DNA from: Felis catus
Taxonomy: Eukaryota
Reading direction: 5' to 3'
Assembly (NCBI RefSeq): GCF_018350175.1
Contig: NC_058368.1
Coordinates: 63,986,001 to 64,050,000 of the forward strand
DNA length: 64,000 bases
Part shown: positions 40,216-62,760 of the stretch, piece after piece
Numbering within the stretch: position 1 is the first letter of the stretch
How the letters are laid out: each line of letters opens with the position of its first letter
The notes under the pieces: generated by a model
What the model was told of the DNA's origin: nothing
The model's input: only the letters and a program-made list of their open reading frames with translations
Databases searched by the model: none
Made by a program: the position numbers and the translations under genes

Positions 40216-40453
40216 ACTCAAAGACCTTCCTGTCTTAAACATAGTACGCACAACCCAAGTAGTGGGACATGTGTTCTGTGTCTCCAGGAGATTCCCAACT
40301 TAGACCTCTTGGCCTAAAGTATTTTATTATTACTCCCTCCTTTACTGTCAGTTGGCCTGGTATGGAGAAATAACTTTATGGTCACCATATATTTGAAAAT
40401 GTGTTATTATTGATTTTCTGAGCATGTACATAATTTTCATACGGTAGAGGTAA

Positions 40454-41003
40454 TGTTAGGAGCCAAGCTCCTAGGCCCTATGGAATGAGAGTTGGCGCAA
40501 AGAACCACTCGGCACTCCGATTTCGGCAGAGAGTCTTTACTGGTGCACCAGGGCTCCCCAGTGTTAGAAAGCGGGAGAGCTCCGATATACGGGGTTACAG
40601 GTCTTTTATACCATTTTGAGTTACATTTGCATACAGGCTGGTGGTAGGCTCTCTGCTCGGTGGTGGTTAGGGTTGGGGGTAATTTCGTCCTGGGAAAGCT
40701 TGGGAAATGGAGTTTCTCTCGGCAGATGCAACTTGGAGCCCGGGTGCGAAGCGGCAGGGGACCTCCGGTTTGGGAGCGTAAGCAGGTTTACAGAAGCGAG
40801 ATGAAAGCGGTCATCGTTATTTATGTGACAACCTGTTCCTGTCTTGCGTAGGGAAAGGTGGGGGTACAGCTCTCCCAGGGTACGGATGTCTAACTGCAGA
40901 TATCCTGTTTGTCAACTGGTGGAAGTGCAAGCCCTGCAAGTGAGGCGTTACGGAACTGAAGATAGGGTGGGGGTGTGTTATTAAGCTAAGCAGGGGTCTT
41001 TCA
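40454..41003 (-). repeat. 3' LTR (550 bp)
   Basis: Preceded by the PPT, begins TGAAAGACCCC, ends CA at the TSD. Confidence 0.97.
40536..40541 (-). terminator. Variant polyadenylation signal AGTAAA in R (copy in the 5' LTR at 48850..48855)
   Basis: CCAGTAAAGAC about 60 nt downstream of the TATA box; no AATAAA seen in R. Confidence 0.7.
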
Positions 41004-41020
41004 TTCCCCCATTTTCTTTT
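41004..41020 (-). other. Polypurine tract
   Basis: AAAAGAAAATGGGGGAA directly abutting the TG of the 3' LTR. Confidence 0.9.
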
Positions 41021-41038
41021 GGCGTCGAATGAAACCTT

Positions 41039-43027
41039 TCATTCGATTGTATCTGGCCTTTCTGCGTCAAATTGTCTTAGTTGGTGGTACTGTTGAGTTA
41101 GGACCAAGGCCTGGATGACAGAGAGTCTTTCTCTTATGAATTGTACCAAGCGGTTGAGGATGCAAGGTCCGAACATCAGTATTAATAGTAGGAGTATTAA
41201 AGGGCCCATGAGGGAGGAGACTAGAGTGGTAAACCAGGGGGATTTGTTATACCACCCCTCAAACCAGCCTTGCTGAGATTCGAACAGCTTTTGTCTTTGT
41301 TTGAGTCTCTCCCTCAGCTTGGCCATGCTGTCTCTCACTATTCCTGTGTGATCAGCATAGAAGCAGCACTCTTCTTTGAGGGCAGCACATAACCCGCCTT
41401 CTTGTAAGAACAACAGGTCAAGTCCCCTCCGATTTTGTAAAACCACTTCTGAGAGGGAGGTTAGGGATCTTTCTAGTGCCGAGATGGATTCTTCTAGTGC
41501 CTGTATGTCAGAATGCATAGCGATTTGTAACTGCTTGAACTGATTAGTTTCTATGAGAGCTGCGGTGCCTGTCCCTATGCCAGCTGCTAAACTTCCCATA
41601 GTTAATCCCCCTAGGAGCAGTGCTACGGTGAGGGAAACTGGTTCTCTCCGGAATCTGCCGCCGGGTTCGTAGTGGCCATAAATATATTCTGAGTCATGGT
41701 AGAAGATTTTTGGCCAAAGTTCAATTAGGATGCAATAGTCGGCAGTATTATTGAGTACCTGGAGCGAGATGCATGGCGTGAGTCCGGTGTTACAGACCCA
41801 GTACGTTCCGTTGGGAGCGGTCAAATAATAGGGACCCTGCCCGACAGATGGTATGGTCTGACTACAGAGATTCTGGTGTGAGGGTGGAATTTTCCCAATA
41901 CATAGGCCATGACCGGTGACTTCAGTTAAAGTGAGGCCATGTCGAGGTGTAGTGCTACATCTCAGTGGGGCATTCGTATGGTTAGTAAAGTTCCCAATTA
42001 TAGCAACTCCCTGATAGTAAGGGGGTTTAGCCGTTAGGCAGAGCCAACAGTCCTGAGTTTGATTTGGGGCCGTAAGGTTGAGAGTTAAGTATACCCCTTG
42101 TACAAGGTTTAGGAGCCTATCTCCTGTGCCCGGTCGAGAGGGGGGGGTCGGGTATCCTAGACTGGGGCTTAGAGTGGAATTAACAGGGTTAATTCCCGGT
42201 GTCTGAGTTGGGGCCCTTGGTGGCTGGACTGGGATGGCTAGCTGGACCGGAGCTTTTTGATCGGCCAATACTAGGTTGGGACCTACGGTTTGGGTGATTG
42301 TATCTATTTTTAATTTGATTTTTAGAACAATCCCCCTATCTTTTCCCGGTAGGTACCATCGGAGTCCCCATGTATAGCCCGTCTGCCATCCGAGAGCCCG
42401 TTTTCCTGAATCTGTAAAGGTAATCTTAAGAGGTAGAGACAGGGGACTTATCCAATGATGATACCCTTCCGTGCCCTTTTTATAGTAGCAAGTGTGTCCA
42501 TCGGGGTCAGGTTTGGTGTAACCTCTTGTAATGGTGATTAAGTCCCAGGAAGAGGTAGGTTGCCAGTAGGCATCGCCAGTAGTTTCGCAGCCCCATGCCG
42601 AGCAGAAATATTCTTCATATCCCCCACATCGGTGGGCAGTGGCCCTATCCCTATTGTCTCGAGGACAGACATAGAACTCTGCCTGGGCTAATCTACATCT
42701 GGCAGTGGGACTACTGCATCCATGGGCAGTCATCTGCTGGATTCTTTCCCCCATGTAGGACTGCAGGTTCTTGGGGCTTCTAGCTGGGATATCCCAAGTG
42801 TCTAATCCAGCTGCCAGCTGGCAAAAATCAGGGGTAAGTGGGGGCCACCAAGTATTAAGCGCATGGTTACCTTGGACCTCCCAGACAACTTCCCCGCTCT
42901 GGGAGTAGATTTGCCAAGTCAAGGTATAAACCTGATGTGGGTTCCCCTCTTTGACAATTTTAGCTCCAATTCCCGCCCCCAAGCTTGTGAGGACCCACAG
43001 AAAGACCATTCCCGCTGGGGGTTTCAT
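41039..43027 (-). CDS. env: Intact gamma-type envelope glycoprotein, 662 aa
   Basis: Signal peptide, PHQ motif, proline-rich hinge, CWLC, furin site RFRR, fusion peptide, [23 protein letters not shown]6CC, TM helix, R peptide with YHQL; no stop or frameshift. Confidence 0.97.
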
Positions 43028-43061
43028 TTTGGGTTTGTGCAGGGACAGGGTGGATTAACAG

Positions 43062-46000
43062 TCAGACACGGGAGAGTCTTATCTTAAGAGGGTTCTCCGA
43101 ACGGTGGAGCTTCCAGGTTTTGGGAGCTTTCGGTCCAGGGGTTCTTGGGGCTGCCTTGGCGTGCGATGCGTGAATCCAGGCGGCGATCCCGTCAACCTTT
43201 ATGGCGGTGGGCGTGGTCAGCAGGACGATGTAAGGTCCCTTCCAACGAGGCTCCAATCCTTGAGAGCGGTGCCGCCGGACGTACACGGAGTCTCCTACCT
43301 GAAATGGGTGGCTAGTTTGTGGATGTCCTGGCCGGTACAGTTCGGCCAGGGGTGTCCAGATTTGGGCCTGCACCGCTTGCAGCCCTTTTAGTCGGGCTTG
43401 TAAATCAGTCTTAGGATCGGAGGGGGAGAAGGAATTGAGCAAGGTTGACAAAGGGGGGGGTCCCCCATAAAGGATTTCATACGGGGTGAGCCCGAAACGG
43501 TTGGGCGTATTTCTGGCTCTTAACAAAGCCAGAGATAGGAGGCGTCTCCAATCTTTTAAGCCAGTCTCTAAGGTCAATTTAGTAAGGGTCTCTTTTATTG
43601 TTCTATTCATTCTTTCTACCTGTCCTGAGCTCTGGGGCCTATATGCACAGTGTAATTTCCAATTAATCCCCAGTGTCCTGGCGAGCCCCTGACTTACCTG
43701 GGAAACGAAGGCCGGCCCGTTATCTGACCCGATTACCTTGGGAAGTCCAAATCTGGGGAAGATTTCTTCTAAAATCTTCTTGGCTACCACGTGTGCCGTT
43801 TCTTGTCGGGTGGGGTAGGCTTCTACCCATCCTGAAAAGGTGTCTACAAACACTAATAGGTACTTATACCCCGCATGGTGAGGCTTTACTTCAGTAAAGT
43901 CTATTTCCCAATAGACTCCTGGGCGGTTACCACGAGTCCGTTTTCCTTCCGGCACTCGGGTAGCCCCAGCGTTTACCTGTTGACAGACCTTACAGGCGGA
44001 GGTTACCTGTTCTATGAGGGTGCCTGCCTTAGGGATTAAGAAGTCAGTTTTGTTAATCAGTAACTTCAGCTTCTGATTACTTAAATGTGTCCAGGCGTGC
44101 ATTTGTTGGATCATTGCCAGGGCTTCCTTTCGGGGAAGGACTATCTTTCCTTCTTTTTCCCAGTCTTTAGTGTCCTGATTCAGTATAGCCCCTATGGCCT
44201 TTGCCTCTTCCTGGTCTTCTGGGGTGTAAGCATATTTGTTGGTCGTAAGATTGGTTTCTTCAAGTTTTGTGGTCAAAGTCAACGTTTCTGCCACAGCGAC
44301 TTGCCTGGCTACTTGGTCTGCCTGTCTATTTCCTGTTGCAATTGGGTCTTGTCCTTTCTGATGCCCGGGGCAATGAATTATGGCTACTTTTCGGGGAAGA
44401 AAAAGGGCCTTTAATAATGCAATGATTTCAGCTTTGTTTTTAATTTCTTTTCCTTCTGAGGTTAGTAGGCCCCTTCTTTCATAAATACTCCCATGTGTAT
44501 GAGCCGTTGCAAAGGCATATCGGCTATCTGTGTATATGTTAGCCTTTTTCCCTTCGGATAGTTCTAGGGCCTTGGTGAGCGCTATCAGCTCGGCCTTTTG
44601 TGCAGACGTGCCAGGAGGTAGTGATTGTGCCCATATGATGTGGTGGCCATCTACTACCGCCGCTCCCGCCCTCCGGGTACCTGAGTCGATGTAACTGCTC
44701 CCGTCCGTATACCAAGAGTGATCCGCATCTGGGAGCTCTTGATCTTTAAGGTCTTCCCGTGTCCCATGGGTCTCAGCCAGTACTTGCCGGCAATCGTGTG
44801 CGCTCTGTTGGTCTTCCGGTGCCGGTAGCAACGTGGCAGGGTTCAAGGTAACCGGAGGTCCAAATTGGACGCGGTCTGTGTCCAGTAGGAGGGCCTGGTA
44901 GTGGGTTAGGCGTGCGTTGGTTATCCATCGGTCCGGTGGCTGCCGCACTATGGCCTCTAAAGCATGCGGGGTGATAACAGTTAGTGGCTGTCCAAGGGTT
45001 AATTTGGCAGAGTCCTTGACCAGCATAGCAGTGGCTGCCATGATACGAAGACATGGGGGCCACCCCGCTGCCACAGGGTCCAACTTTTTGGACAGGTATG
45101 CTACTGGCCTCTTCCAGGGCCCTAATTTTTGGGTTAGAACTCCTTTGGCAATTCCTTGTTTCTCGTCTATGAAAAGGGTAAAGGGCTTGGAGGTGTCTGG
45201 CAACCCGAGAGCCGGGGCGGAGAGGAGGGCCTCTTTTAGGGCCTCAAAGGCTGACTGATGTTTTTCCTGCCAGGTGAAGGGTGCACTCTCTTTCGTGAGG
45301 GCATAGAGGGGGGCGGCTAGCTCAGCGAACCCAGGTATCCATAAGCGACAGAACCCAGCAGTTCCCAGGAATTCACGTACCTCTCTGGGGTTCTGGGGCG
45401 GCGGAATGCGAGCCACAGTTTCTATTCGCCCAGGGGTGAGCCATCTTTTCCCCTCACTCAGTATGTACCCCAGGTAGGTTACCTTGGTTTGGCAAATCTG
45501 GGCCTTCTTGGCGGATGCCCGGTATCCTTTTTCTCCTAATTCCCGGAGCAGATGTCTGGTACCTAGTATGCAGGCTTCTTTTGTGGGGGCGGCCAGAAGA
45601 AGGTTATCCACATATTGGAGTAGAGTTACTTCTGGATGTTGAGTCCGGAAGTCAGTTAGGTCCCTGTGAAGAGCCTCATCAAAGAGAGTGGGGGAGTTTT
45701 TGAACCCTTGGGGTAAGCGGGTCCAGGTTAATTGGCCTGAAATTCCTCTTTCAGGGTCCCTCCATTCAAAAGCAAACAGTTCCTGGCTCTGGGGGGCCAA
45801 GGGTAAGCAAAAGAACGCATCTTTTAGGTCCAGTACTGTGTACCAGGTGTGGTCTGGGCTCAGGGTGCTGAGCAAGTTATAGGGATTGGGGACCGTAGGG
45901 TGGATATCCATAGTCCTTTTGTTGACTTCTCTTAAGTCTTGGACGGGCCTGTAGTCCCGGGTGCCAGGTTTTTTTACTGGTAAAAGAGGGGTATTCCAAG

Positions 46001-46632
46001 GTGAGCGGCAAGGTCGCAGGACCCCAAGCTCTAGAAATCTAGTAATGTGTGGCTGAATGCCCATATGAGCCTCCTTGCTCATGGGATACTGCCTGATAGA
46101 CACAGGCATTGCCGTGGGCTTTAGGTCAATTATGATTGGGACTTGGCATTTGGCTCGACCGAGCCCTCCCGTTTCTGCCCAGGCTTGGGGAAAGTCCTGC
46201 AGCCAGGCTTCGAGGAGGTTAGTGGTGACCGGGGTTTCAAAAAGTCTGTGTTCGTCTTGTAAGGACACAGTTAAGACTTGGATAGGCTGGCCATCCCGGT
46301 TTAGCACTTGGGCCCCCGTTTCGGAGAAGTGTATCTGGGCTCCAAGCTTGGTTAGGAGGTCTCGTCCCAGAAGGGGGTACGGGCATTCGGGTACCACCAG
46401 AAAGGAGTGTGTCACCGTCCCTTGCCCTAAGTCAACCGTGCGGCGGTTAGTCCATTTGTGAATTTTTCTTCCTGTCGCTCCTTGGACCCAGGAGGTACGC
46501 GAGGACAGAGGCCCATTTGCCTTGGTTAAGACCGAGTGTTGAGCTCCCGTGTCCACCAGGAAGGTGGTGGGATGCCCCCCTACAGATAGGGTTAGCCGGG
46601 GCTCGGGGGGGGGCTCCGGAGCCCTGACATCC
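43062..46632 (-). pseudogene. pol: pro-pol (PR-RT-RNaseH-IN); long open frame, but out of frame with the gag amber codon and with RT motif YVDN
   Basis: PR LVDTGA and [18 protein letters not shown] and YVDN; RNase H TDGSS, AELIAL, TDSRY; IN HHCC, D(WEIDF)-D(SDNG)-E(VERMN), GPY, C-terminal [14 protein letters not shown]; 9-C run at 46605..46613 shifts the frame. Confidence 0.93.
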
Positions 46633-46635
46633 CTA
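46574..46635 (-). other. gag-pol amber readthrough signal with pseudoknot
   Basis: TAG, 8-nt spacer GGATGTCA, stem 1 GGGCTC/GAGCCC, stem 2 GCCCCCC/GGGGGGC, as in MLV. Confidence 0.85.
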
Positions 46636-48308
46636 TTCGCTCTCTTCGCCTAAGGCGAGCACAGAGGCAGGTTTCTTTGAGTTCCCGGGGCGCTTAGGGC
46701 AGTCTTTGATCCAGTGCCCGCGTTCTTTGCAATAGGCGCACTGGTCTTTTCCTACTTTGGGCCGCCTCTTCGTTTCCCCTGACTTTCCTGTTCCGTTTTC
46801 TGTCACTACAGCTGCCAGGATTTTGGTTAAATGTTTATCTCTCTTTCGATCTCTTCGTTCCTCCCGTGCTTCCTGCTCTTTTGCTAGCCTAGCCTCCTTT
46901 TCCTCTGGGGTCTCCCTTTTGTTATATACCTTTTCTGCCTCCCTAACTAGTTCCTGCAACCCATAGGTTTGAATCCCATCTAGCCGTTGGAGCTTTCCTT
47001 TTATATCAGACGCTGCCTGATCTATGAATGACATGGCCACGGTAGCCTTATGTTCTGGAGCCTCGGGGTTAAATGGAGTATACATCCGAAACCCCTCTAG
47101 AAGCCGTTCCATAAAGGCTGCGGGGCTCTCCTCTTTTCCTTGGATTATGGTCCTTACCTTGGCCAAATTGGTGGGCCGTTTCCCTGCCCCCTTGAGACCC
47201 GCCAACAGAGCCTGGCGATAGATTCGGAGACTCTCCCTACCTGGAGCCGTTTCATAGTCCCAGTCCGGGCGGGTGAGGGGAAACCCTTCATCTATTTCAT
47301 TGGGAAGCTGAGTTGGAAGACCTCCAGGCCCCGGCACATTTTTCCGGGCCTCCAGGAGAACTCGTTGCCTTTCCTCGGTAGTCAAAAGGACCTGTAAGAG
47401 CTGCTGGCAGTCGTCCCAGGTAGGCTGGTGTGTGAGGAGGATAGACTCTATTAGTGAGGTTAGGGCCTGGGGTTCTTGGGAAAAGGAAGGGTTATGAGTT
47501 TTCCAATTATAGAGATCGGATGCAGAAAATGGCCAATATTGGACAGTCCGGTTGACTGTCCGGAGAGGAAACAGGGAAGATTGCCAAGTGGGAGGGCCGT
47601 TCGGGTCGTCCGATCGCCGGAGACGGAGGCGGGGGTCTGAGGTGGGGTCTGGGGAGTTAGATCGGGTGGGGCTGGAGTAGAGGATGGGGCTGACGTACAG
47701 GCGGGGGAAGAAGTTGGGGAGGGGGAGGAGGAACTGGAGGCAGGAGGGGAAGTAGGGGGCACCGGGGACAGGACGGAGACGGGGGCCAGGGGTGAATTAT
47801 AGGGTGGAGGTAGTAAGAGGGGGTTGTGGGGCGGTGAAGTCTCTTCGGGGGCGTGGGGCGGCGAAGACAAAGCGTCTAGGAGGAGGGGGTCCCTTTGGGA
47901 CTCATCGGGAAAAACCGGTTTGGGCGGATCTGGAGTTTGGGTTGAGGCTCGGTTTTTGGAGGTTTTCAGGGGAAGGAGGGTAGACTGAGAAGTGGGGCAG
48001 GAAGGAAGGAAGGGTTTCACTCATGCCGGAGGATTCCGGATGAGATCCTCCCAGGTGAGGATATAGGCCACTTGATCTGGATGACCTTGTGGTCCAGGAT
48101 CCATTACCTTCGTCTTAACCTGTAATATAACAAAGAGGTCAAAAGTCCCGTCCCGGGGCCACCCTACAGATAGGGTGGGCCACTCCGATGAACAAAAAGT
48201 TCGCCATCGACCTTTTCGAACCTCAACGGATAGATTGCGAGCTCTTGCCTGGACGTCCGAGAAATGAGTCAGAGTCAAAGATAGAGGAGTAGTCAGTGTC
48301 TGTCCCAT
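46633..48308 (-). pseudogene. gag: gag (MA-p12-CA-NC), disrupted by TGA at codon 96 (48021..48023) and a -1 frameshift at 47631..47635
   Basis: Myristoylation start MGQ at 48308; PPPY late domain (47799..47810); [21 protein letters not shown]; single CCHC knuckle [14 protein letters not shown]; amber TAG at 46633..46635. Confidence 0.93.
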
Positions 48309-48515
48309 GGCTGTGTCGTCCTGTCCACGCGTCCACACACGCACACTTACACACACACACACGAATATGACTACAATGTCGATACAGACCAGACAACACA
48401 GACTAGACAACAACCAGGGAGCCGCGGCCAGGTATTCAGATTCAGATGGCAGGGGAGGCCTGCCTTCGGATTTGGGGAGTCTGACGAACTTGTCAGTTCT
48501 CCTCTACAAGCACCA

Positions 48516-48565
48516 CCGAGGCGTCCCTCGGGGCCGGGGTGTGAAGGTTCAGGACACGTCTGTCC
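48516..48565 (-). other. Core packaging signal: two GACG-tetraloop hairpins
   Basis: GGACA-GACG-TGTCC (48552..48565) and CCGAGG-GACG-CCTCGG (48516..48531), equivalent to MLV SL-C/SL-D. Confidence 0.85.
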
Positions 48566-48747
48566 TCCTTCAACACTCCTACTGAGGTGGCCGGCCGGCC
48601 TCAGAATTCACAGTTCAGAGACAAAACATAGAACACAATACCTGTGTGCAGACAAAGGCACAGAAGTCTGTCTTCAGTCAGTCCGTCAGTGGCCCGGGCC
48701 GGAGAGTCATCTACCGACGGGGCCGGGGTTCTCCTGCCTTCCCTCGC

Positions 48748-48765
48748 TTCCCGGCCCATGCACCA
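48748..48765 (-). other. Primer binding site, tRNA-Gly(GCC)
   Basis: TGGTGCATGGGCCGGGAA, 2 nt after the 5' LTR; complementary to the 3' 18 nt (TTCCCGGCCCATGCACCA) of mammalian tRNA-Gly-GCC. Confidence 0.92.
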
Positions 48766-48767
48766 AA

Positions 48768-49317
48768 TGTTAGGAGCCAAGCTCCTAGGCCCTATGGAAT
48801 GAGAGTTGGCGCAAAGAACCACTCGGCACTCCGATTTCGGCAGAGAGTCTTTACTGGTGCACCAGGGCTCCCCAGTGTTAGAAAGCGGGAGAGCTCCGAT
48901 ATACGGGGTTACAGGTCTTTTATACCATTTTGAGTTACATTTGCATACAGGCTGGTGGTAGGCTCTCTGCTCGGTGGTGGTTAGGGTTGGGGGTAATTTC
49001 GTCCTGGGAAAGCTTGGGAAATGGAGTTTCTCTCGGCAGATGCAACTTGGAGCCCGGGTGCGAAGCGGCAGGGGACCTCCGGTTTGGGAGCGTAAGCAGG
49101 TTTACAGAAGCGAGATGAAAGCGGTCATCGTTATTTATGTGACAACCTGTTCCTGTCTTGCGTAGGGAAAGGTGGGGGTACAGCTCTCCCAGGGTACGGA
49201 TGTCTAACTGCAGATATCCTGTTTGTCAACTGGTGGAAGTGCAAGCCCTGCAAGTGAGGCGTTACGGAACTGAAGATAGGGTGGGGGTGTGTTATTAAGC
49301 TAAGCAGGGGTCTTTCA
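48768..49317 (-). repeat. 5' LTR (550 bp)
   Basis: Begins TGAAAGACCCC on the minus strand, ends CCTAACA, followed by TT and the PBS; no mismatch found by eye against 40454..41003 (offset 8314; ORF-track peptides in both copies are identical). Confidence 0.97.
48918..48924 (-). promoter_or_regulatory. LTR TATA box (copy in the 3' LTR at 40604..40610)
   Basis: TATAAAA in U3 at the expected position upstream of R. Confidence 0.85.
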
Positions 49318-50809
49318 GTAATACTATGTAAGCAGTTTTAACATTGCTTTTGTCACCTAACATTGTATACCCAGCATTTCCCTATATGATATATAATTCC
49401 CTAGAAGGAATATACCGTAATTCACTTATGTATACTTCCATTGTTTTTAATTTTGCCCACCAAAATGATAACTGTGATCAATTTCTTTGCATTCATTAAT
49501 TTCACTACTCTTCTATTATTTTGCTTGTTATAATAAAATTTACATTGTTGAGTTAAAGGTAATGAATATATGTTAGGATTTTGATAATGGCATATATCTT
49601 CAGCGATTGAGAATTTCAAAGTATAGCTCAGGCAAGAAAAAAAGGCAACCAAACTATCTTTGCCCAGACATTTGCTGAAACTGCATTTCAGAGTTGACAT
49701 TATGAGAAACTTAGGCTGATTCTTTCATTTGACCTTTATTTGCTGACTGCCCTTCTTATCTTGTGTTGGTAATAATATTCAACTTTCTCATCTGCTTGGT
49801 ATTCGTACACCATATCGTAGCTGTCATTTTGTGCTAATTTTCCATAAATTACCTAGCAAAAAACAAACCACTCAATAACAAAGAATGAATTGAGTGTATG
49901 CTCTTTGACTTATGATTTCTGGAGCTGGAGATCTCCTGTGGCTAAAGAAAAATATTCAACATGTCAGTGTTATGTCAAACATCAGTTCTGAAATTATCAG
50001 GTAATCTCAAATCTCCAAGGGTGTTGCTGTGGGTTCCAAGAGATTTTCAGTGTTGTTTTAAAGGAAATAAGAAATGTCAGACTTGTGTCTCCAAGGTTTG
50101 GTCTCCTGAGTAATAGATTGTATGTGTCCTTTATTGGATGCCCTTTTGTCTGCATAAAGTGGAAATATTCAGTCTCTTTTTGGAATCTTTACTCTTCTAT
50201 TTGATTCTAATTAGCCTTGGCAATATCGTGTCATCCCTTGGTTTGCATTTTTCCAAGAATAGCAACCTTTGTTTTTCTAGATGCCTTAGTACACAATAAG
50301 GTACTTTGTAATGTTAATACTTCACAGTACCACTAATTGGGTATGTTAAAGAGGATACCTTATTTTTAAAAAGAGCTGAGATTTCAAGAAACTACAGATG
50401 CAGTGGATTGCTGCTGCTCAATTTGTCCTCAGGCAAAATTTTATCTTTTATTTAATCATGTTTAATTTGGTGTTCCTCACATAAGGTTTCTCTTTGTTCT
50501 CCATTTTTACGTTTTGAAGGATTAAATTCGCTATTTCAAACACAGTCCCATCTTTATTTGTCTTGAAATTTTTCTCTTTCTCCTTGAATCATGTTCAGTT
50601 TGCATTATATCTTTAACTTCTTATTTTGAAATAATTATAGAGTCACAAGAAGTTGCAAGCAAAATGTAGAGAGACCTTATGTATCCATAACTCACTTTCC
50701 CCAATGATGACATTTTATATAACTGTGATGCATTATCAAAACCAAGGAATTGATATTGGCATAAACAATTAACTAAACTAGCAAACTCTTGGGGTTTTGG
50801 ATTATTTAC

Positions 50810-51000
50810 AAAATTTTTAATGTTTATTATTGAGAGAGCGAGACAGAGCATGAGCATGGGAGGGGCAGAGAGAGGAGGAGACAGAATTTGAAGCAAGCTT
50901 CAGGCTCTGAGCTATCAGCACAGAGCGACTGGAAACCACCAACTGCGAGATCATGACCTAAGCCAAAGTCAGATGCCCAACCGAGCCACCCATGCGCCCC
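50810..51000 (-). mobile_element. CAN-SINE
   Basis: TSD GGTTTTGGATTATTT. Confidence 0.9.
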
Positions 51001-51350
51001 GGTTTTGGATTATTTTAAAACAATGTATGTAGTAATATGAGCTCTTTGCCGATAGTGTCCTTATAAGGAGTAACTAATTTTACTTCAAAAGTATTATCCT
51101 TAATAGTTTTTAGTTTTGTTTATCTCCTTTATAGCTATGATTGGAGAAAAATAAAGTATAGCAAAATCAATATTTTGTATTTCTTCTTTAGATTAAAATA
51201 ATGGTAACTAATATTTGTTAAAATGCCTTGTTATTGGCAATACACATGGATGATTTCACTTACATTGACTGAAAAAAAAGCCAGCCTCAAAGTAAATTAG
51301 TAAATGCTTTCTTGCTTGTCTTACTGAGGACTGTAGCAGGGGAGACAGTA

Positions 51351-51493
51351 CTTGGATTGTGAGTAACTTGTTCTGCAAGTTTTTCACAGGACGAGTAAAC
51401 ACTACTAATAAATTTTAACTTGATAAACAAATGATGTCTTGCAACCAAGTAGTATGTGATGCCAAATGTCCCGTGATCACAACTGAGCCAGTG

Positions 51494-51544
<51 letters not shown>

Positions 51545-52197
51545 CTGTGGGATTGTGGGTGATTGTCTCCCATGCTCAGATGCTTGGTTTCAGGCCATGG
51601 TGTTTGGCAGAAATCAGTGGTTTTTCAACATTGGAAAGTGCCCACAACTGGCACAAGGGTGTTTTTTTGTCACTTCAAAGCACCTGTGGAAAGTCCTTTG
51701 CTTTTCCATACGAGAGTAAGCTTAGAAATGCTTTGCTTCATTCTAGGTCAGGCTGCCTGCAGGTAGAGACCCTTTCCTTTGGTGCTTTATTGCCAGAAAT
51801 CCTCAAAAAAAGGCAAAAGCAAGTGTCATTCGATAGGTTCCTTGTTAAAGTTGCACAAAAAGAAGAAGATTCCATTGAACCAATAGATAGCAGTGATTCC
51901 GTTAGCAATAATGAAAGTGGTCCTAGACAATAACCCACCTCTCTCTTCCTCACACCAGCTACGAAGATTTTCAAAGGTAAGTGCAGGTTAATTTGTTTAT
52001 TTTTCTTTATATTTTCTTTATTACTTTGTATTATATTACAGTATTGTAATCATTTTTATGTGAATATTTTGGAGTTGTGGAATGAATTATCTACGTTTCC
52101 ATGATTTCTTATGGGGAAATTCGCTTTGATATACAAGTGCTTTGGGTTATAAGCATGTTTCTGGAACAAATTATGCTCACAAACCAAGGCTTTGCTG
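51351..52197 (+). mobile_element. Internally deleted Tigger-like DNA transposon with transposase C-terminal remnant
   Basis: TA flanks; right TIR ...aaaccaaggctttgctg; peptide EILKKRQKQVSFDRFLVK resembles the pogo/Tigger transposase C-terminus. Confidence 0.7.
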
Positions 52198-52682
52198 TAT
52201 TTCAGATTGTTCTGAAAAAACTGCTCTGAAGCTTGTTAGTTTACAGAGGATTGTATGCAGAAAGGGGGAGGGGTATATATAAGTGTTGTAAGCAGTGCAC
52301 AAAGCTGCAGTTGTGTGTCACCAGGTATAACTTGTTTGGTTTTAAGAATTAAGGTTTAATGATTTCCACATAAACACATGAAAGACCAACCCTAGGTCAT
52401 CTCTATACATTATGTTTCTATCATATCTCATTGTTCAAAAACATTGCCTGAATGCCTTTGCTTAACTGGCCTTCTGGTTCTTCTTGTTTTGGGGTTTCTC
52501 CTTGAAGTTACTTGAGAAGGTCACAGAAGGCTGGCATCAGTCACCTGTTTTAATGCAGCACCGTTTCAGTGCACACTTAATATCACAGCCGCCCTGAATA
52601 TTAGAACACAGCACTGATATTCTAAACATAAGGTAATTGAAGCTCAGGGAGAGTTAATGAGTGACCAAATCCACATTGTGAA

Positions 52683-53650
52683 TGTTGGGAGGAAAAATGT
52701 TCCTCTCCCCTTTAAGTTCTTTTGTCTGGTTACAGAATTAAACAGAGACAGATTGACAGAAGAGAATCAAACAAAAGTTTAACAATATGTATACCTTCTT
52801 TATATATGGGAGAGACCCAGGAAAATTGAGTAACTCCCCCAAATGGCAGAAGCCATCACCTTAAATACCATCTTCAGCTAAACATAAAAGATGTTGGGGG
52901 TGGGAAGTCAGGTGGGAGGTTACCAAGAAACATACAGTAAAGGTTGTTACACAGATTTAAGTCTGTGCTTTCTTCATTGCTAAAAGTTTTACAGATTGAA
53001 TCACCTGCCTCTTTTTTTTTTTTTTTTCAACGTTTATTTATTTTTGGGACAGAGAGAGACAGAGCATGAACGGGGGAGGGGCAGAGAGAGAGAGGGAGAC
53101 ACAGAATCCGAAACAGGCTCCAGGCTCTGAGCCATCAGCCCAGAGCCCGACGCGGGGCTCGAACTCACGGACCACGAGATCGCGACCTGGCTGAAGTCGG
53201 ACGCTTAACCGACTGCGCCACCCAGGCGCCCCACCTGCCTCTTCTTAATACAAAGGAGATTACACTTAGAATTTTCCCTTATACATGCAAATGTCTCTTA
53301 CAAAAGGGTAGCTTCTACTTGATTTTCAATTTTTCTCTTGTGTTTGCAGTTTCTTAAGAATGAACGGCTTAAGGGGTGCCTGGGTGGCTCAGTCAGTTGA
53401 GTGTCCAACTCTTGATATCAGCTCAGGTCACGATCCCAGGATTGTGGGATCGAGCCCCAAGTCAGGCTCTGCCAGGAGCATGGAACCTGCTTAACATTCT
53501 CTCTCTCTCCCTCCACCCTTCTCCCCCATTCCTGTGCTCTCATTTTCTCTCTCTCTCTAATTAAAAAAAAAAAAAAAAGAATAACCAGCTTAAAATTATC
53601 AATATGCCAAAGAGGCGTATTTTGGGGTGGCAAAATTTGCTCCTGTATAT
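52683..53650. mobile_element. Solo LTR-like element containing two SINEs (53013..53232 minus, young, TSD CACCTGCCTCTT; 53373..53578 plus)
   Basis: TG start, similarity to the block at 36339; SINE TSDs visible. Confidence 0.65.
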
Positions 53651-54204
53651 GAGAGAAAGGCCAACATAGGACTTAGGTTCAATCTTTGTAATGAAGTCTA
53701 AAATTTTCCTATACAATTATATTGTCTCATATGAAGATAGAGATTTATCTTTTGGGTTGATTGCACAAACTTACTTTGTGTTTTTCTTGTGGCATATGTG
53801 ATCACACAGAACTCATCATGATTAAATGATTATTAAACCTATTACTGATCATTTATTCTCTCCTTTCTAATATACATACTTATTTGTTTTTTTTCATGTT
53901 ATGGTGTTGGCTAGACCTAAATAATAATAAAAGTGCCTGTTAGTTTAAGATAGTTATTTTAATCAGGGTAAGGAAATATCCTTTAACTATTTTTAATTAA
54001 ATTAGTCATGTGTATTATACTTACTAAGTAAATGTGCAATATAAAGTAAATGAAGAGGTTTATTGTTATGTTGTGTTACATGAATAGGCATTTCTTAGTA
54101 TTAAACCATGTTTGTATGCCTGAATTTGAATCCCAAATTATTGGCGTGGGTGATTTGTTAGTAGGGTACAGTTCAGTTTGTTGTCATTTTAGTTAGGAAT
54201 ATTT

Positions 54205-54420
54205 AAAAAAATTTTTAATGTTTATTTATTTTTGAGAGACAGAGACACTGAGTGTGAGTTGGGGAGATGGAGAGAGAGAGGGAGACACAGAATCTGAAGC
54301 AGGCTCCAGGCTCTGAGTTATCAGCACACAGCCCGATGTGGGGCTCAAACTCACAAACCACAAAATCATGACCTGAGCCAAAGGTCAAAGGCTTAACCGA
54401 CTGAGCCACCCAGGCACCCC
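54205..54420 (-). mobile_element. CAN-SINE
   Basis: TSD TAGTTAGGRATATTT. Confidence 0.92.
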
Positions 54421-54599
54421 TAGTTAGGGATATTTTAACTGTGTTCATGGGAGATACTGTTTAAATATTTCATTCTAACTTTTTCAAGAGTTAGTGTCAG
54501 AGTTATATTTGCTTTGTATAATTACTGGAATAGAAGCTACTTGTTTTTCTATGCTTTTATATATATTTTATTGCTTCAACTCAGATTTTAATTTTAATT

Positions 54600-54814
54600 T
54601 AACTTTATTTTTAAAATGTATTTATTTTGAGAGAGACAGAGACAGCTCAAGTGAGGGAGGGAAGCAGAGAGAGGGAGACAGAGAATCTCAAGCAGGCTCC
54701 ACACTGTCAGCAAGGAGTCCAGTGTGGGACTTGAACTCACCAAACAGTGAGATCATAACCTGAGCCGAAACCAAGAGTCAGACACTTAACCAACTGAGCC
54801 ACCCAGGTGCCTCC
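54600..54814 (-). mobile_element. CAN-SINE
   Basis: TSD CAACTCWGATTTT. Confidence 0.9.
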
Positions 54815-55532
54815 AACTCTGATTTTTAAAAAACATTCTAATAAAACTGTTTGGTTATTGAAGCTTTAATAGAAATTTCATTTTCAATAATACTTTTGAG
54901 TTTCTTGCAAAGATTTGGTATGTTTACCAGATTTACCATTTTTAAGTTAATACAAGATTCATTTACCCAGTTCATCTAAATGAAACATGTAATCCATTTT
55001 CTAGAGTCATATTCTCTGTATTTAAAATGATTTCTTCATTTCCTATATTTATTGTTCCACTTCAAATTTTAAATTTTTAATTTTTTTATTATAATCTTGT
55101 ATTTTTTTGTATATTTTGTCATATTTTTGTGTATTATGGGATTCTTGTTAAAGGATGAATTCATATCTTTATCAGTTCTACTTGTTAAATTCATAATTCA
55201 TTGCGTTTTATTTAATATTTAATTTAATATACCCTAAATTGACTTATATATGTTTTGTTTTACCATTAAAAATTTTTGAGTTAAATACTAAATTATTTAA
55301 AATTTTTAAACATAAATGAGAATATTTATAGCTATGCATTTTGAATTAAATGTGGGATTATCTCTATAGTAATTGGCTGGGTTTCTTTGTGGTAAAAAAG
55401 GACTAATCTCAAGGTGTCTATTTTTAAATATTATAAGAACAGGATTGGTGGTGGTTGTCTTGTTTCAGCTTTCCCTTAATTTTTAGTTTTTTTGAGTTCT
55501 CTGCAGATAATGTAAATCACATAATTTGCACT

Positions 55533-55742
55533 TTAAAAAATTTTTTTAACATTTATTTATTTTTGAGAGAGACAGAGCATGAGTGGGGGAGGGGCAGAGA
55601 GAGGGAGACACAGAATCTGGAGCAGGCTCCAGCCTCTGAGCTGTCAGCACAGAGCCTGACGCTGGGCTCGAACTTACAAATCGTGAGATCATGACCTGAG
55701 CTGAAATAGGATGCTTAACCAACTGAGCCACCCAGGTGCCCG
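55533..55742 (-). mobile_element. CAN-SINE
   Basis: TSD ACATAATTT. Confidence 0.9.
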
Positions 55743-56705
55743 ACATAATTTTTACTTTTAAAAACATATTGTAACTTTTTTGGTAGTCCTAGATATAATC
55801 CATTTTTCGTTTTCAAAGGAGACATGAAAGAAAAATACTTTTGTGGTCCACAGATTATAATATGCATGTGTTAAAAATGTACATTATAGTGACAAAATTA
55901 TATCCTTTAAACTTTTTATGTAATCAATCATAACTGAGAGCCATACTAATTCTACCATCATTAAATCTCTTCTAAATATAGTTTTATCTTTAATTATGTA
56001 TTCATTGTTGTGAATATATTTTGCTTTGTAAAGGTTTGCTATGTAACTTATTGAATAAAGATTATTGTTGCTATATATTCATTGACTATTTTGCCTTTTA
56101 CCATTAAGTTGCTCTCTTATTTTCCATGTAAAACCTTTCCCCTTAAATTCCACTTTGTCTGAAGTCAATGTTGCTACTCAAAAACTTTTGATTTTTATAT
56201 TCCATAGTAATCTCTATATTAATCTAGGTATTCTAGATTGTTAAACTTCCAGGAATGATTTTTACACTTCCTGGAAATAGAATAGAGTTTTATTCATTCA
56301 TTTATTTTTATAAATTCAACCTGAGAATCTGTTTTCAATAGTAAGTGATATAATTTATCTCAGTTTACCATACCTGATTATTTGGATTTACTTCAGTGAA
56401 CTCATTTATCCTTTGTAAACAGCATTCTGTGTGTGTTTCCTCCTGCATGGAATGTGTTTTTTACTTTGTATTTTTTTAATGTTAAAAACTTACATATGTA
56501 AACTTTATTACCATTTCATATTAGTCATTCAGCATTCAACATATTTATAGAATAATAACTATTTATAGGTAGGTTTTTATGTATCTGTGAATAAAACATA
56601 CAGAAATCTCTCTGTAATAGAGGTTATCACAAAATAGGATAATTCCTTGATTTGTTTTAAAATGTTACATACCAAGCAAAAAATAAATCAAGAAAAGAGG
56701 ATAGA

Positions 56706-56921
56706 GGGGCGCCTGGGTGGCTCAGTCCGTTGAGCATATGACTTTGGCTCAGGTCTTGATCTCATGGTTTATGAATTCAGGCCCCACATCAGGCTCTCTG
56801 CTGACATCTTGGAGCCTGGAGCATGCTTTGGATTCTCTCTCTGCCCCTCTCCTGCTCATGATCTGTCTCTCTCTATCTCAAAAGTAAATAAATGTTAAAA
56901 AATTTTTAAAAACAAATGAAA
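56706..56921 (+). mobile_element. CAN-SINE
   Basis: TSD AAGAAAAGAGGATA. Confidence 0.92.
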
Positions 56922-56959
56922 AAGAAAAGAGGATAACTGATGCCTGTAGAGATAGGGTG

Positions 56960-57500
56960 GTATTATAGTTACTATTGCTGCTTAAGAAACTATCCCCACA
57001 ATTTAATAACTTAAAAGAACAAACATTTTATTATATTTCGTGGATACTATAGGTCAGGAATATTCCAGCAGGGTTCACCTGGATGATTCTTCTGCTTTTG
57101 TGTGATTAAAGTGACTCAGTACTACTCTACTGTCAAATAAGTCAGTCTGGAGGGTCCAAGGGGCTTTTTCCTATGTCTTATAAATCAGTGAGGGTGGCTA
57201 GAAGGATGGGGTCAGTTGGGAGGCACTCTTCATTGGAGAGCCTACACATGACTTTGCCACCCTGGAGGTATCAGGGTAGTTGAACTTCTTATATGGTAAC
57301 TGGGTTCCCATGGATTGAGAATTCTGAGGGAACCAGGGAGAAGTTTTGTGGGTTTTTACTGTCTAGCCTTAGAAGTCACACAAAATTATTTGCCGTAATC
57401 TATTGGTTGTAGCAGTCACAAGCATGCTCCGGTTCAAGGTAAGGGGACACAGACCCATCACTTGGTGTCAACCTATTTTGAGGCCATTTTTAAAACTGCC
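56960..57500. mobile_element. MLT1-type MaLR LTR
   Basis: tattgctgc...aactatccccacaatttaataacttaaaa end motif. Confidence 0.7.
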
Positions 57501-57509
57501 AGACATGGA

Positions 57510-58030
57510 GATTGTATATCAGGTGCAAGGCATTTAAGGAGAGACTTGAAAGAGATGAGGAGGGATCATGCGTTTCTGAGGAAGGAGCATTTTGAGGAGA
57601 AGGTAGCTTGTACGAAGACCCTGAATCGGAAGCATGTGGACTTGGCTGAGAGTACCATCTTTGAAACCAGTGTGGTTGGAGCCTAATGAGGGAAGAGTAT
57701 CAGTAGCTGATAGAAAAATAAAGGAGATGAGGCAGATTATGGAGAAAGGGTCTCGTAGACCATTGTAAAGACTGTCTTTTCTTATAACTGAGATGGCCTC
57801 CATTGAAAGGTTTTAAGCAGAGGAGTAACATGATATGAATTATGTTTAATAATATCTTTCTGGCCTTGTGTTAGGAATAGCTGAAGGGGGTTCATGGCAG
57901 AAGCTGGGAGACTGGTTAAGAGTTTTTTTGTAATCATCAGATGAGGGAATAGGCATGGACCAGACTACAGTGATCAGGTTGGAAGAGGTTATCTGTGGTG
58001 TGAGTCTGGACACTGTGATTGGAGCCTAAA
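57510..58030. mobile_element. L2 fragment
   Basis: ttgaaaggttttaagcagaggagtaacatgat and similar L2 motifs. Confidence 0.65.
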
Positions 58031-58239
58031 AGAATTTTTAGTGGTATCTCTTGAGCTCACAGTGTTAGATGAGGGGTATAGAAAGCTTTTCCTTCTCTTT
58101 GACCCTAAAATTCTTAATATCTACTATTGGAATGTGAAATATAATTGCATTTATAAAATATTTTATGTTCTCTTCCAGTTTTACTTTAAGAATATTATGG
58201 TGGCAAACAATTATATGTAAAATTAACTTTAAATATATA

Positions 58240-58438
58240 TTTTAAGTTTATTTTATTTATTTTGAGAGAGAGAGGGTGAGCAGGGGAGGAGCAGAGAGAG
58301 ATGAAGAGAGAGAATCCCAAGCAGGCTACACACTGACTTTGCAGAGCCTGATTCAGCGCTTGATCCCATGTACCATGAGATCATGACTTGAGCCAACATC
58401 AATAGTCAGATTTAATGGACTGAGCCACCAAGACACCC
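58240..58438 (-). mobile_element. CAN-SINE (older)
   Basis: SINE body and tail. Confidence 0.85.
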
Positions 58439-58799
58439 TAGATTTATAATTAATTGAGTCAATTGTCTCAGGATTTTGGGTGTACAATTTCCTGGCTCTT
58501 AAAACTTTAATTTTTATTGTTTTTCCCCAGTATATACCCATATGCCCTTGAGTAATTATTAGAAAGATAAATCAGTAGAATATGTATAGAATATCTCTCA
58601 GTCAGCCTGGAGAAAGACAACCTAATAGGTATATTCTTGGTAGTCTTATCCTCTTAAAAGTGCCATGTCTTTGAATATGTTAATGCAGCAAAAGAAAGGT
58701 CCAAAGCAAGCCTGACTCTTTGCTGCTGTTGTTGTTGCTGTTGTTGTTTGTCGCTGTGGCTAATGTTGTTTTCTGTCTATATATAAGATGGACATTTTT

Positions 58800-59012
58800 T
58801 AAATTTTTATGTATTTTTAAAATTTTTTTAATGTTTATTTATTTTTGAGAGCCAGAGAGAGGCAGAGAGAGAAGAGAAAGACAGAATCTGAAGAGGCTCC
58901 AGGCTCTGAGCTGTCAGCACAGAGCCCGATGTGGGGCTCGAACTCACAAACTGTGAGATCGTGACCTGAGCCAAAGTCAGACGCTTAACTGACTGAGCCA
59001 CCCAGGCGCCCC
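58800..59012 (-). mobile_element. CAN-SINE
   Basis: TSD TGGACATTTTT. Confidence 0.92.
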
Positions 59013-59615
59013 TGGACATTTTTTTTTTTTTAATTTCTGGAGTTTGGCTAGTTTCTATCTAAATATGGGTCACACTTCATTGTTTTCCTACCACTGCCTC
59101 TACTAACTGATTAGTCATTTTAGTCTTCATGTTTCAGCTATAGTTTTGATTATTGTTTCAGAATGAGTTGGTCTTGTTTCTCAGGTACACAAATTGTTTT
59201 TGAGTTGAAACTACAGTCTCTGGCATTCCCATCTACCATTTCTCTGTCATTGTTTTATCTTTCTCTTTTTCCCCCGGGGCTGTGATTCAATTACCACTTG
59301 AACTTTTCACTGTATCAGTTTTCTTGCCCATGTATTTCTTTGTGGTTGGAAATTCTGCTACTGCATGTTAGTTTTCCTATAAACCTCCTAATCTCAGGCA
59401 TCTCCCATTTTGCCATTTTGTCATTTTAACTTTGTTCTATTTCATAAATGACTTGCCTTTCTACACATTCTTCGTAGTTTAAGTACTTCAAAGCAATTTT
59501 CTAAATATTCCTTCTGGTTCCACAGTTAAATCTTTTTAAGGGATATTCCTTTTCCCGAGTCTTTATTATGAGAACATGATGTTCCCTTTCCCTTTTCTAC
59601 AGCATGATTTTTAAT

Positions 59616-59649
<34 letters not shown>

Positions 59650-60044
59650 CGCTTTCTGTTTTATTTTCCCCACTCTCTTTATCTAGAAGGTAGTGATGTT
59701 TATCCAAAATCAGGGTCTAACATCAAAAAATAATAACCATTTTTCCATTAATTTGTCTACCTTTGAGATGAGCTACTTTTTGATGTAAACTGGAGAGCAG
59801 GTTGATAGACATAACTCCTCCCAGTGGCCAGCAAGCATTTATTGGAACAGCTCAACTAGGCTAAGTTGAAACCTGTTTAATCTGTCTGCTTCAAGGTACC
59901 AAGCATGTTATCGTACTTAGCATGGACATATAGTGGGGACTGGGGTACTCATATAAGAATGAGTACTTATCACAGGTTATACATGTTACTGCTTTCTGAT
60001 GAGGAATTCTAAAGGAGGGCTGTATTTATTTGGATATTAATTTT

Positions 60045-60649
60045 TTATTTCAGTTTTTTATATAAATCCTTGTTAGTTAACATTCAGTGCAATATTGGTT
60101 TCAGGAGTAGAATTCAGTGACTCATCACTTATATTCAACAGCCAGAACTCATTACAACAAGTGCCCATCACCCATCCAGCCCATTCCCTATCCACCTCCC
60201 TCCATCAACTCTCAGTTTGTTCTCTTTCATTAAGAGTCTCTTAGGTTTGCTTCCCTCTCTTTTTTTTTCCCCTTCTCCTATGTTCATCTGTTTAGTTTCT
60301 TGAATTCCACATATGAGTGAAATCATATGCTATTTGTCTTTCTCTGACTGGCTTATTTCACTTAGCATAATACACTCAAGTTCCATCCATGTTGTTGCAA
60401 ATGGCACAATTTCATTCTTTTTGATGGCTGAGTAATATTCCATTATATATATTATATATATTTACATATATCACATTTTATATGTATATACACATTATAT
60501 ATATGTATATATAACATCTGTGTATATATATCATGTATCCATACATATACACATATATAACATATTTATATATTCCGTTATATATTATATGTATACACCA
60601 CACTATATATATACGTGTGTGTGTGTATATATGTGTATATGTATATACA

Positions 60650-60685
<36 letters not shown>

Positions 60686-61235
60686 AATTATATATACACC
60701 ATCTCTTTTTATCCATTCATCAGTTGATGTACATTTGTCTCTCTCCTAATTTACATATTGTTGATAATGCTGCTACAACAGTCAGGGTGCATGTACCCCT
60801 TTGAATCTGTATTTTTGTATCCTTTGGGTAAATACCTAGTAGTACAGTTGCTAGATCATAGGGTCGTTCTGTTTTTAACCTTGTGAGGAACTTTCATAAT
60901 GTTCTCCAGGATAGCTGCACCAGTTTGCATTCCCATCAACAGTGTAAGAGGGTTCCCCTTTCTCCATACACTAGTCAACACCTGTTGTTTCTTGTGTTAA
61001 TGTTAGCCATTCTGACAGGTGTGGGGTGGTATCTCATCATGGTTTTGATTTGTATTTCCCTGATGATGATTGATATTGAGCATTTTTCATGTGTCTATTA
61101 GCCATCTGGATGTCTTCTTCGGAAAACTGTTTATCCATGTCTTTTGCCCATTTCTTAGCTGGATTATTTGGTTTTGGGGTGTTGGGTTTGATAAGTTCTT
61201 TATAGATTTTGGATACTAACCCTTTATCAGAATGG
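60045..61235 (-). mobile_element. 5'-truncated carnivore L1 with internal TA/CA microsatellite (60440..60700)
   Basis: Reverse ORF2 end and 3'UTR; ATTAATTTT on both sides. Confidence 0.88.
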
Positions 61236-62377
61236 GCATTAATTTTAAATAGCCTATTGGTATAGTGCAGGCCACTTGTTTATCAGTAGTTCCCTGTTTT
61301 GCTTTATAATCTCTCTCCATTTTCCCCTAAACTTCATTCAAATTCCATTGTACTAATAAATAGCACTTTGTAACATGTGGAAGAGAAGGGAAAAGAAAAA
61401 GAGGCTGATTTCATGTTAGGGTAGTGGGGGAAGCAGCAGAGGGAAAGAAGGATTCTGGGAAACTTATGTGATTAAGCTCTCATCACTCAGGTAATGATTT
61501 GCTTCTAGCACCTGTGTCATACTGCCTCCCCCCCAACAAGGCTTTCTTGAGGGAACAAGGCCCAGCAGGCCCCTAATGCATCATGTTCTTTTATTATAGC
61601 TACTGTCTCCTAAGGAGGCTTCACATTATGAATTATGTGGGAGTGGCTAGTCTCTGGCCCCTCAAGAAACAGGACTGGGACAATAGAGGAACATTCTCTG
61701 GGATGCTGCAAGAGTGACTCAGAGACTAGGCTATGGAGAGCCAACTACCATCTTATATGGTTTTTATAAGGAGGAAATTCTTCTGTCTTATGAAATAAAA
61801 TATGGATAGGATGACTTAATTGTTCTTATAATCCATATATTATCAGTTTTAACGTTTGGTGTTGTTCATGTTGTTTGTTCTGTTTTCCTAATTTCTTTCT
61901 GTTTCTTTACTAATGGGGTCTTGGGTCGGACTCCATTATAGACTATCAGAAGCTATTTAAAGCTTGATCAAATCAGCATTAAAATGAACTTCATATTCCT
62001 AGAATTTGTTACCAAATTCAGGAATGTTTAGAAATGACTCATCACTTTTATAAGGAACAATTCTGGGAAAGATAAACTACTGCCTGAAAATGATTTTTTA
62101 GTTTACTTTTGTATCTGTCCTACATTCACTCTGATACAGATATGAGCTCTCATATTACAAACATGTTGCCAAGCCCTGGAACTAGAGGATGATTAGGACA
62201 GACATGCTAGTTGACCTTAAGAATTTACAGTCTAGAAGGGAGTTACAGACATTAAACACATCCTTGTGAATTAATTACTTAATTACAGTGATGATACATG
62301 CATCCCAGAAAACGAGGTATTAGCAAGCAATAGCTGAAGTGAGAGCAAATAACACAGGAGATACCCAAGTTGGTGGT

Positions 62378-62760
62378 TGTATTAGTTTCCTGTGGCTGCT
62401 GTAACAGATTACCACTGAGAAACTTAAAACCACAAAAATGTATTCTCTAATAGTTCAGAAGTCTGAAATTCATATCACTGGGCCAAAATCAAATTATTGG
62501 CCAGACCAAACTCCCTCTAATGGCTCTAGGGAGAATCCATCCCTTGCCTCTTCCAACTTCTAGAGTTTCTAGGCTTGTGGCTGTGTCACTGTGACCCCTG
62601 ACTTGTGATCCCACTGTCATCTTCTCTTCCTTCCTTTAGAAAGAAATCTCCCTCTGTCTGCCATTTAAGGAGATATAGGTGATTGCATTTGGGGCTCACC
62701 CAGATAATTCAGGGTAATCTCAAAATCCTTAAATGAATCATTACTGCAAAAATCTTTTTG
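62378..62760. mobile_element. MLT1-type MaLR LTR
   Basis: tgtattagtttcctgtggctgctgtaacagattaccac end motif. Confidence 0.75.

Follow-up and report, generated by a model that had tools for sequence, protein, structure and literature searches.

The 64,000-nucleotide stretch of Felis catus DNA analysed here (the window) carries a long open retroviral env frame, and the question it raises is what kind of element this frame belongs to, and whether its product could act in the cat or be passed on to an infecting virus. We found that the frame lies within an ERV-DC provirus, that is, a simple gammaretrovirus of Felis of about 8.8 kb with ERV-DC gag-pol, env and LTR. Taken together, our observations make it likely, to a good degree of confidence, that this is a recent genotype I insertion of a Felis genome which has lost gag-pol function, keeps an unchanged env behind a weak LTR and plays a passive donor role. 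The ORF, motifs, genotype, lesions, and LTR identity and class were observed or computed here (Table 1). The locus is an unremarkable example of an already described group, as the protein, the genotype, the receptor and capture by FeLV are all published. Statements attributed to PMC9245640, PMC9967133, PMC10878261, PMC12844630, bioRxiv 2024.05.09.593269 and bioRxiv 2021.12.09.471612 refer to the portions of these sources that were available to us.

Table 1. Features of the provirus, in window coordinates
Feature	Position	Strand	Details
Whole provirus	40,454-49,317	minus	8,864 bp; two LTRs and target duplication; same length as published ERV-DC8
5' LTR	48,768-49,317	minus	550 bp, TG...CA; published low-activity class; both genotype I primers match
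3' LTR	40,454-41,003	minus	550/550 identical to 5' LTR
Target-site duplication TTAC, 5' side	49,318-49,321	minus	
Target-site duplication TTAC, 3' side	40,450-40,453	minus	
Primer-binding site	48,748-48,765	minus	two bases past 5' LTR; presumably tRNA-Gly type
Candidate splice donor, leader	48,634-48,647	minus	motif scan only
gag, broken	46,633-48,308	minus	premature stop at codon 96 (48,021-48,023); frame break near 47,630
pro-pol, broken	43,062-46,632	minus	frame lost relative to gag terminator from cytosine run 46,605-46,613; RT motif altered at 45,603-45,614
Candidate env splice acceptor (~43,299)	43,297-43,319	minus	motif scan only; no ATG before env start
env ORF, ERV-DC genotype I	41,039-43,027	minus	1,989 nt, 662 aa; no internal stops; exact protein deposited
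Polypurine tract	41,004-41,023	minus	

With the base composition found here, an open frame of this length would arise by chance with a probability of about 2e-14. Its parts follow one another as signal peptide, receptor-binding domain, proline-rich region, C-terminal SU, furin site, TM and putative R-peptide, the last being the 21 residues C-terminal of what we take to be an MLV-like R-peptide cut site. A previous interpretation made from the letters alone (the sequence-only reading) had described a single 662-codon gammaretroviral env with all named motifs intact, and every motif was indeed found at its claimed position: PHQ (residues 30-32), WGCETTG (145-151, with E148), CWLC (327-330), the furin site RFRR (458-461), an ISD-type stretch (530-547), CX6CC (547-555) and YHQL (647-650). 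Hydrophobic peaks at residues 7-25, 466-484 and 606-624 fit the signal peptide, fusion peptide and membrane anchor, Pfam TLV_coat spans residues 9-632 (E 3e-227), and the 16 PDB matches to Env include the receptor-binding domains of Friend MLV and FeLV and gammaretroviral TM. The env product thus belongs to the gamma-type retroviral Envs, whose hallmarks are an SU CXXC, a furin site, an ISD, a TM CX6CC, a membrane anchor and an R-peptide (PMC9967133). The exact Env sequence is already deposited in ENA, UniRef and nr, and a repeat look-up of the protein cluster returned no new members among the 15 of 31 that were listed. The cluster representative AAD41892 differs from this Env at five residues, all of them consecutive (297-301), much like a short compensated frame slip in the older record.

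The same reading had assigned the env to genotype I, and here SU and receptor-binding distances, a tree of residues 23-297 and LTR primer sites all agree, so that on sequence comparison the assignment is secure. The best Env matches were cat Envs at 99% and 90% identity, followed by matches at 60% or below. Among the 23 comparison proteins, four cat Envs of 662 aa match at 657-661 of 662 residues; the counts are 660/662 for both BAM33595 and BAM33603 and 661/662 for XP_044914269. Labels for the 662-aa and 671-aa cat records are our own assignments, whereas those for FeLV-D and Refrex-1 come from record annotation or a paper; going by accession order, we take BAM33595 to be ERV-DC8, BAM33603 to be ERV-DC19 and the 671-aa group to be genotype III, a group in which two records are identical to each other, as those of DC10 and DC18 should be. 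Within the receptor-binding region (23-245) the present Env is identical to genotype-I-like Envs at 222-223 of 223 positions, to the genotype II protein Refrex-1 at 208/223 and to the 671-aa group at 182-184/221. Moreover, the 671-aa group carries an 11-residue insertion and a 2-residue deletion, neither of which is found here. Against FeLV-D TY26 (BAM33588, so named in Dataset S2 of PMC9245640), residues 1-461 are identical at 460/461 and TM at 176/197, as expected of the SU donor type, and residues 23-297 are identical throughout (275 columns). In the tree of that region (22 rows, with four partial FeLV records and one fragment excluded and genotype II represented by one sequence), this Env has the same sequence as TY26 and one cat record, and it groups with the genotype-I-like and FeLV-D rows at a support of 88/90, which is under the tool's starred threshold, while the 671-aa group stands apart at 99/100. 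Both genotype I qPCR primers (bioRxiv 2021.12.09.471612) match each LTR without mismatch, and no site in the window comes within fewer than five mismatches of the genotype II reverse primer or the genotype III forward primer.

That the env might instead be of genotype II or III is an idea to which we give practically no chance, and the protein distances refute it. The moderate 88/90 support and an exact match of the genotype III reverse primer in a conserved part of this genotype I env (window 42,020) would be in its favour, yet they are set against the receptor-binding counts given above, the missing insertion and deletion, and a length that equals the published 662 aa of genotype I Env (bioRxiv 2024.05.09.593269). 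As a side observation on the primers, bioRxiv 2021.12.09.471612 prints one and the same sequence for the genotype II forward and the genotype I reverse primer.

Residue 148 had been singled out in the sequence-only reading, and E148 is present as described. Its diagnostic value did not hold: 22 of the 23 comparison proteins carry WGCETTG unchanged, among them FeLV-A, FeLV-C and Fv-4 as well as Envs of genotype II and genotype-III-like Envs, and the 23rd is a fragment without this region. Because the motif is common to every relative that covers it, E148 is uninformative on genotype and was discarded as a marker of either genotype or function; judged from these relatives it is the normal state and rules out one known defect only. 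We take that defect to be E148K, the change that would inactivate the Env of wildcat ERV-DC14. An inactivating SNP is in fact described in bioRxiv 2024.05.09.593269, where it abolishes replication and is left unnamed in the part available; the name E148K was not located in the literature searched, a search for it returning no ERV-DC paper (the likely source lay outside its reach).

Considering its intact motifs and close relatives, this Env is very probably functional in principle. The Envs of TY26, ERV-DC8, DC14 and DC19 all entered cells via CTR1 and those of genotype III did not (PMC9245640), which bears out CTR1 as the genotype I receptor, and PMC5923473 likewise bears out genotype I as the source of the FeLV-D env. 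Near-identity with these tested Envs suggests that the present one would use CTR1, fall into the FeLV-D interference group and be processed normally. Envs with intact motifs can nevertheless be dead, as in cleavage-defective genotype II (PMC5923473) and wildcat ERV-DC14 (bioRxiv 2024.05.09.593269), and a substitution outside the known motifs could have had that effect here. We regard this as highly improbable: wherever one close relative departs from this Env, the remaining ones share its residue, the four positions that are cleavage-critical in genotype II (PMC9245640) hold the residues of working Envs, and the SU is identical at 460 of 461 positions to that of an infectious FeLV-D Env. A functional Env would then be made from a spliced transcript initiated in the 5' LTR and cut by furin at 458-461, with SU and TM staying linked via CWLC and CX6CC, and would bind CTR1, a copper transporter, as the other Envs of genotype I and FeLV-D do. 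Since gamma-type Env retains its R-peptide and is non-fusing until the viral protease cuts it off (PMC9967133), membrane fusion would follow only after that cut. The R-peptide is intact and the provirus makes no protease, so Env at the cell surface would not be fusion-active alone, and fusion would need the protease of another virus.

The absence of protease reflects the state of gag-pol, where damage to both gag and pol in one provirus had gone without mention in the sequence-only reading. We found four lesions, two substitutions and two frame breaks, outside of which pro-pol is open through to the end of integrase. The canonical form of the altered RT active-site motif is kept in 114 of 120 pol matches and in all 10 close relatives covering the site. 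Consequently Gag, protease and a working RT cannot come from the provirus as assembled, and the intact gag-pol that the replication-competent class (DC8, DC10, DC14, DC18) requires is missing from it. Could the lesions be partly or wholly sequencing or assembly errors, leaving an intact genotype I provirus like ERV-DC14? We consider this unlikely. One frame break does lie inside a run of nine cytosines, a homopolymer, the provirus has the length of intact ERV-DC8, and no entry of the protein collection matches the broken-frame pol or gag product exactly; but there are four separate lesions of two kinds, none occurs in the 1,989 nt of env or the 1,100 nt of LTR, and the remaining pol is identical to a cat relative at 1,012 of 1,015 positions, which argues for a low general error rate. 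Two gag pieces are identical at 95/95 and 129/130 positions to a Gag-Pol record from wildcat. The cat pol (window 43,062-46,649) is identical at 1,017 of 1,117 positions to a macaque Gag-Pol record, which falls in its 90% cluster, and at 975/1,117 to a bonobo record; this likeness fits the published exchange of this virus group between cats and primates, but is closer than the PcEV genome similarity of roughly 70% (PMC5923473).

Does an intact env beside a broken gag-pol mean that the cat has kept it? By length alone, the probability that all four lesions would miss env is 0.28, so the pattern gives no sign of selection on env, and we rejected selection as a reading of it. A domesticated env of the Fv-4 or syncytin type would be marked by expression, by fixation and by purifying selection. 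Rather, we propose that the youth of the insertion accounts for the intact env. The two LTRs have no differences, which gives an upper 95% age of 0.2-1.2 million years under assumed rates of 1.2e-8 to 2.3e-9 per site per year, and CpG observed/expected is 0.55 within the provirus versus 0.19-0.20 in the flanks. Most genotype I insertions are less than 0.2 million years old (PMC5923473).

As to which locus this is, ERV-DC8 is ruled out because its flanking primer sites are absent: both primers and both shared cores gave no match in the window at up to three mismatches. ERV-DC8 and ERV-DC14 share with the present provirus a 662-aa Env, the low-activity LTR class and, for ERV-DC8, the length of 8,864 bp; both are replication-competent, whereas gag-pol is broken here, and each has one LTR difference (bioRxiv 2024.05.09.593269), whereas the LTRs here are fully identical. 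ERV-DC17, ERV-DC19 and ERV-DC2 are alike in having an intact env in a provirus that is not productive or is partial (PMC5923473 Table 1). Among the env-intact genotype I loci of that table, DC14 has gag-pol intact and the gag of DC17 is listed as intact; DC19 and DC2 have active promoters, and DC17 is in the inactive-promoter class (PMC5923473). The LTR class and env thus fit ERV-DC17, though gag is broken here and listed as intact in Table 1. What fits best is that the locus is ERV-DC17, as another allele or through a discrepancy in the table, or an uncatalogued insertion. Regarding the protein itself, the Envs of ERV-DC8 and DC14 differ at residue 28 only, and that of DC8 is 96.5% identical to TY26 (bioRxiv 2024.05.09.593269). 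The present Env is identical to TY26 at 636/658 positions (96.66%) and differs from BAM33595 at residue 28, from which we infer that it probably has the same sequence as ERV-DC14 Env; a second difference from BAM33595, at residue 550, and the 96.35% identity of BAM33595 to TY26 do not exactly fit the figures available from the preprint (bioRxiv 2024.05.09.593269).

These near-identities bear on the proposal that the locus could donate its env. Donation as such is plausible; that it would be particular to this locus is not, as several genotype I Envs are identical at 657-661 of 662 residues, and by its sequence the locus appears to be one of several near-identical possible FeLV-D donors. Its passive role would be that of one template among these for SU capture by a co-infecting FeLV. 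FeLV-D arises anew in each cat and forms three clades (PMC10878261), and ERV-DC8 has been favoured as the donor on frequency (bioRxiv 2024.05.09.593269). FeLV-D Env (TY26, ON-T, 44B) is among the closest known systems. Over five full-length FeLV-D Envs, the receptor-binding region is identical to that of this Env at 218-223 of 223 positions; in contrast, their TM is partly FeLV-derived (173-185/197 to this Env) and FeLV-D is an exogenous recombinant. No passage on ERV-DC was found in the available portion of PMC12844630, and an IMG/VR scan gave three pattern matches, none of them confirmed. The identity, frequency and transcription of this insertion would help to say which genotype I loci supply FeLV-D in infected cats, something that protein sequence by itself can hardly settle when the env copies are so alike. 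Its significance would be greater only if it were proved to be expressed and fixed.

On expression, both LTRs belong to the published low-activity class. No basal promoter activity was seen for DC1, 3, 4, 8, 14 and 17, partial methylation is described, and genotype I expression in cat organs is extremely low (PMC5923473); in FEA cells it lies much below that of group II (bioRxiv 2021.12.09.471612). Transfected ERV-DC8 made Env despite its low-activity LTR class (bioRxiv 2024.05.09.593269). Going by the published genotype-wide data, the present locus is most likely near-silent. A scan of sequencing runs found part of the stretch in 22 of 24 rows, and half of it or more in 18; six RNA runs from three studies hold 0.40-0.75 of its words, so that RNA libraries contain some ERV-DC-like sequence. 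These matches are not assignable to this copy, since genotype I copies differ so little from one another and an RNA run may contain the sequence as DNA, and we took them as evidence of neither expression nor frequency. The RefSeq cat gene model LOC105261123 has at least four transcript records, and its Env differs from this one at one residue (position 11, in the signal peptide); it could point to a genotype I locus that is transcribed, or to another allele.

The further suggestion that a receptor-blocking or fusogenic Env could be expressed from this locus therefore meets with contrary signs, namely the low-activity LTRs, the very low genotype I transcripts and an R-peptide without protease. 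In its strongest form it would hold that the locus is expressed in some tissue, that its Env, anchored in the membrane, takes up CTR1 and thereby shuts out FeLV-D and genotype I viruses in an Fv-4-like manner, and that loss of gag-pol is early domestication. We think this distinctly unlikely. Env is intact against four gag-pol lesions, the sequence offers candidate splice sites, its receptor-binding region is the same as in an Env that uses CTR1, and the same idea has been raised for the env-only locus ERV-DC6 (PMC5923473); against these stand the non-significant lesion pattern (P = 0.28), the weak LTR class, the youth of the insertion, and Refrex-1, which already acts on this receptor and needed only to be silenced for FEA-conditioned medium to lose its blocking activity (bioRxiv 2021.12.09.471612). 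More speculative still is an uncatalogued env-only genotype I insertion, transcribed somewhere, that would supply both a surface CTR1-binding blocker of FeLV-D beside Refrex-1 and an RNA template for TY26-like FeLV-D, which strikes us as a long shot. Were it true, a membrane-bound CTR1 blocker might perhaps also affect copper uptake. Fv-4, the mouse env-only locus with a restriction role, likewise has a full-length env in a defective provirus (373/642 residues identical to this Env), and its receptor differs from that expected here.

Another close known system is Refrex-1 (ERV-DC7/ERV-DC16, genotype II). Its receptor group (PMC9245640) is one that the present Env would share, and the two proteins are identical at 268 of 297 positions; however, Refrex-1 is truncated, secreted, fixed and highly expressed (PMC5923473), whereas this Env is full length, membrane-anchored and behind a weak LTR. 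A Refrex-1-type factor, in which a stop in the proline-rich region yields a secreted SU fragment, was accordingly rejected as a description of the present ORF, which is full length. A Pfam scan of 23 of the 40 non-proviral frames of at least 90 aa gave no match to host gene domains, a scan that short exons would escape. The flanks themselves (1-40,450 and 49,320-64,000) are AT-rich and hold many short interspersed repeats and long (TA)n and (CTTTT)n runs.
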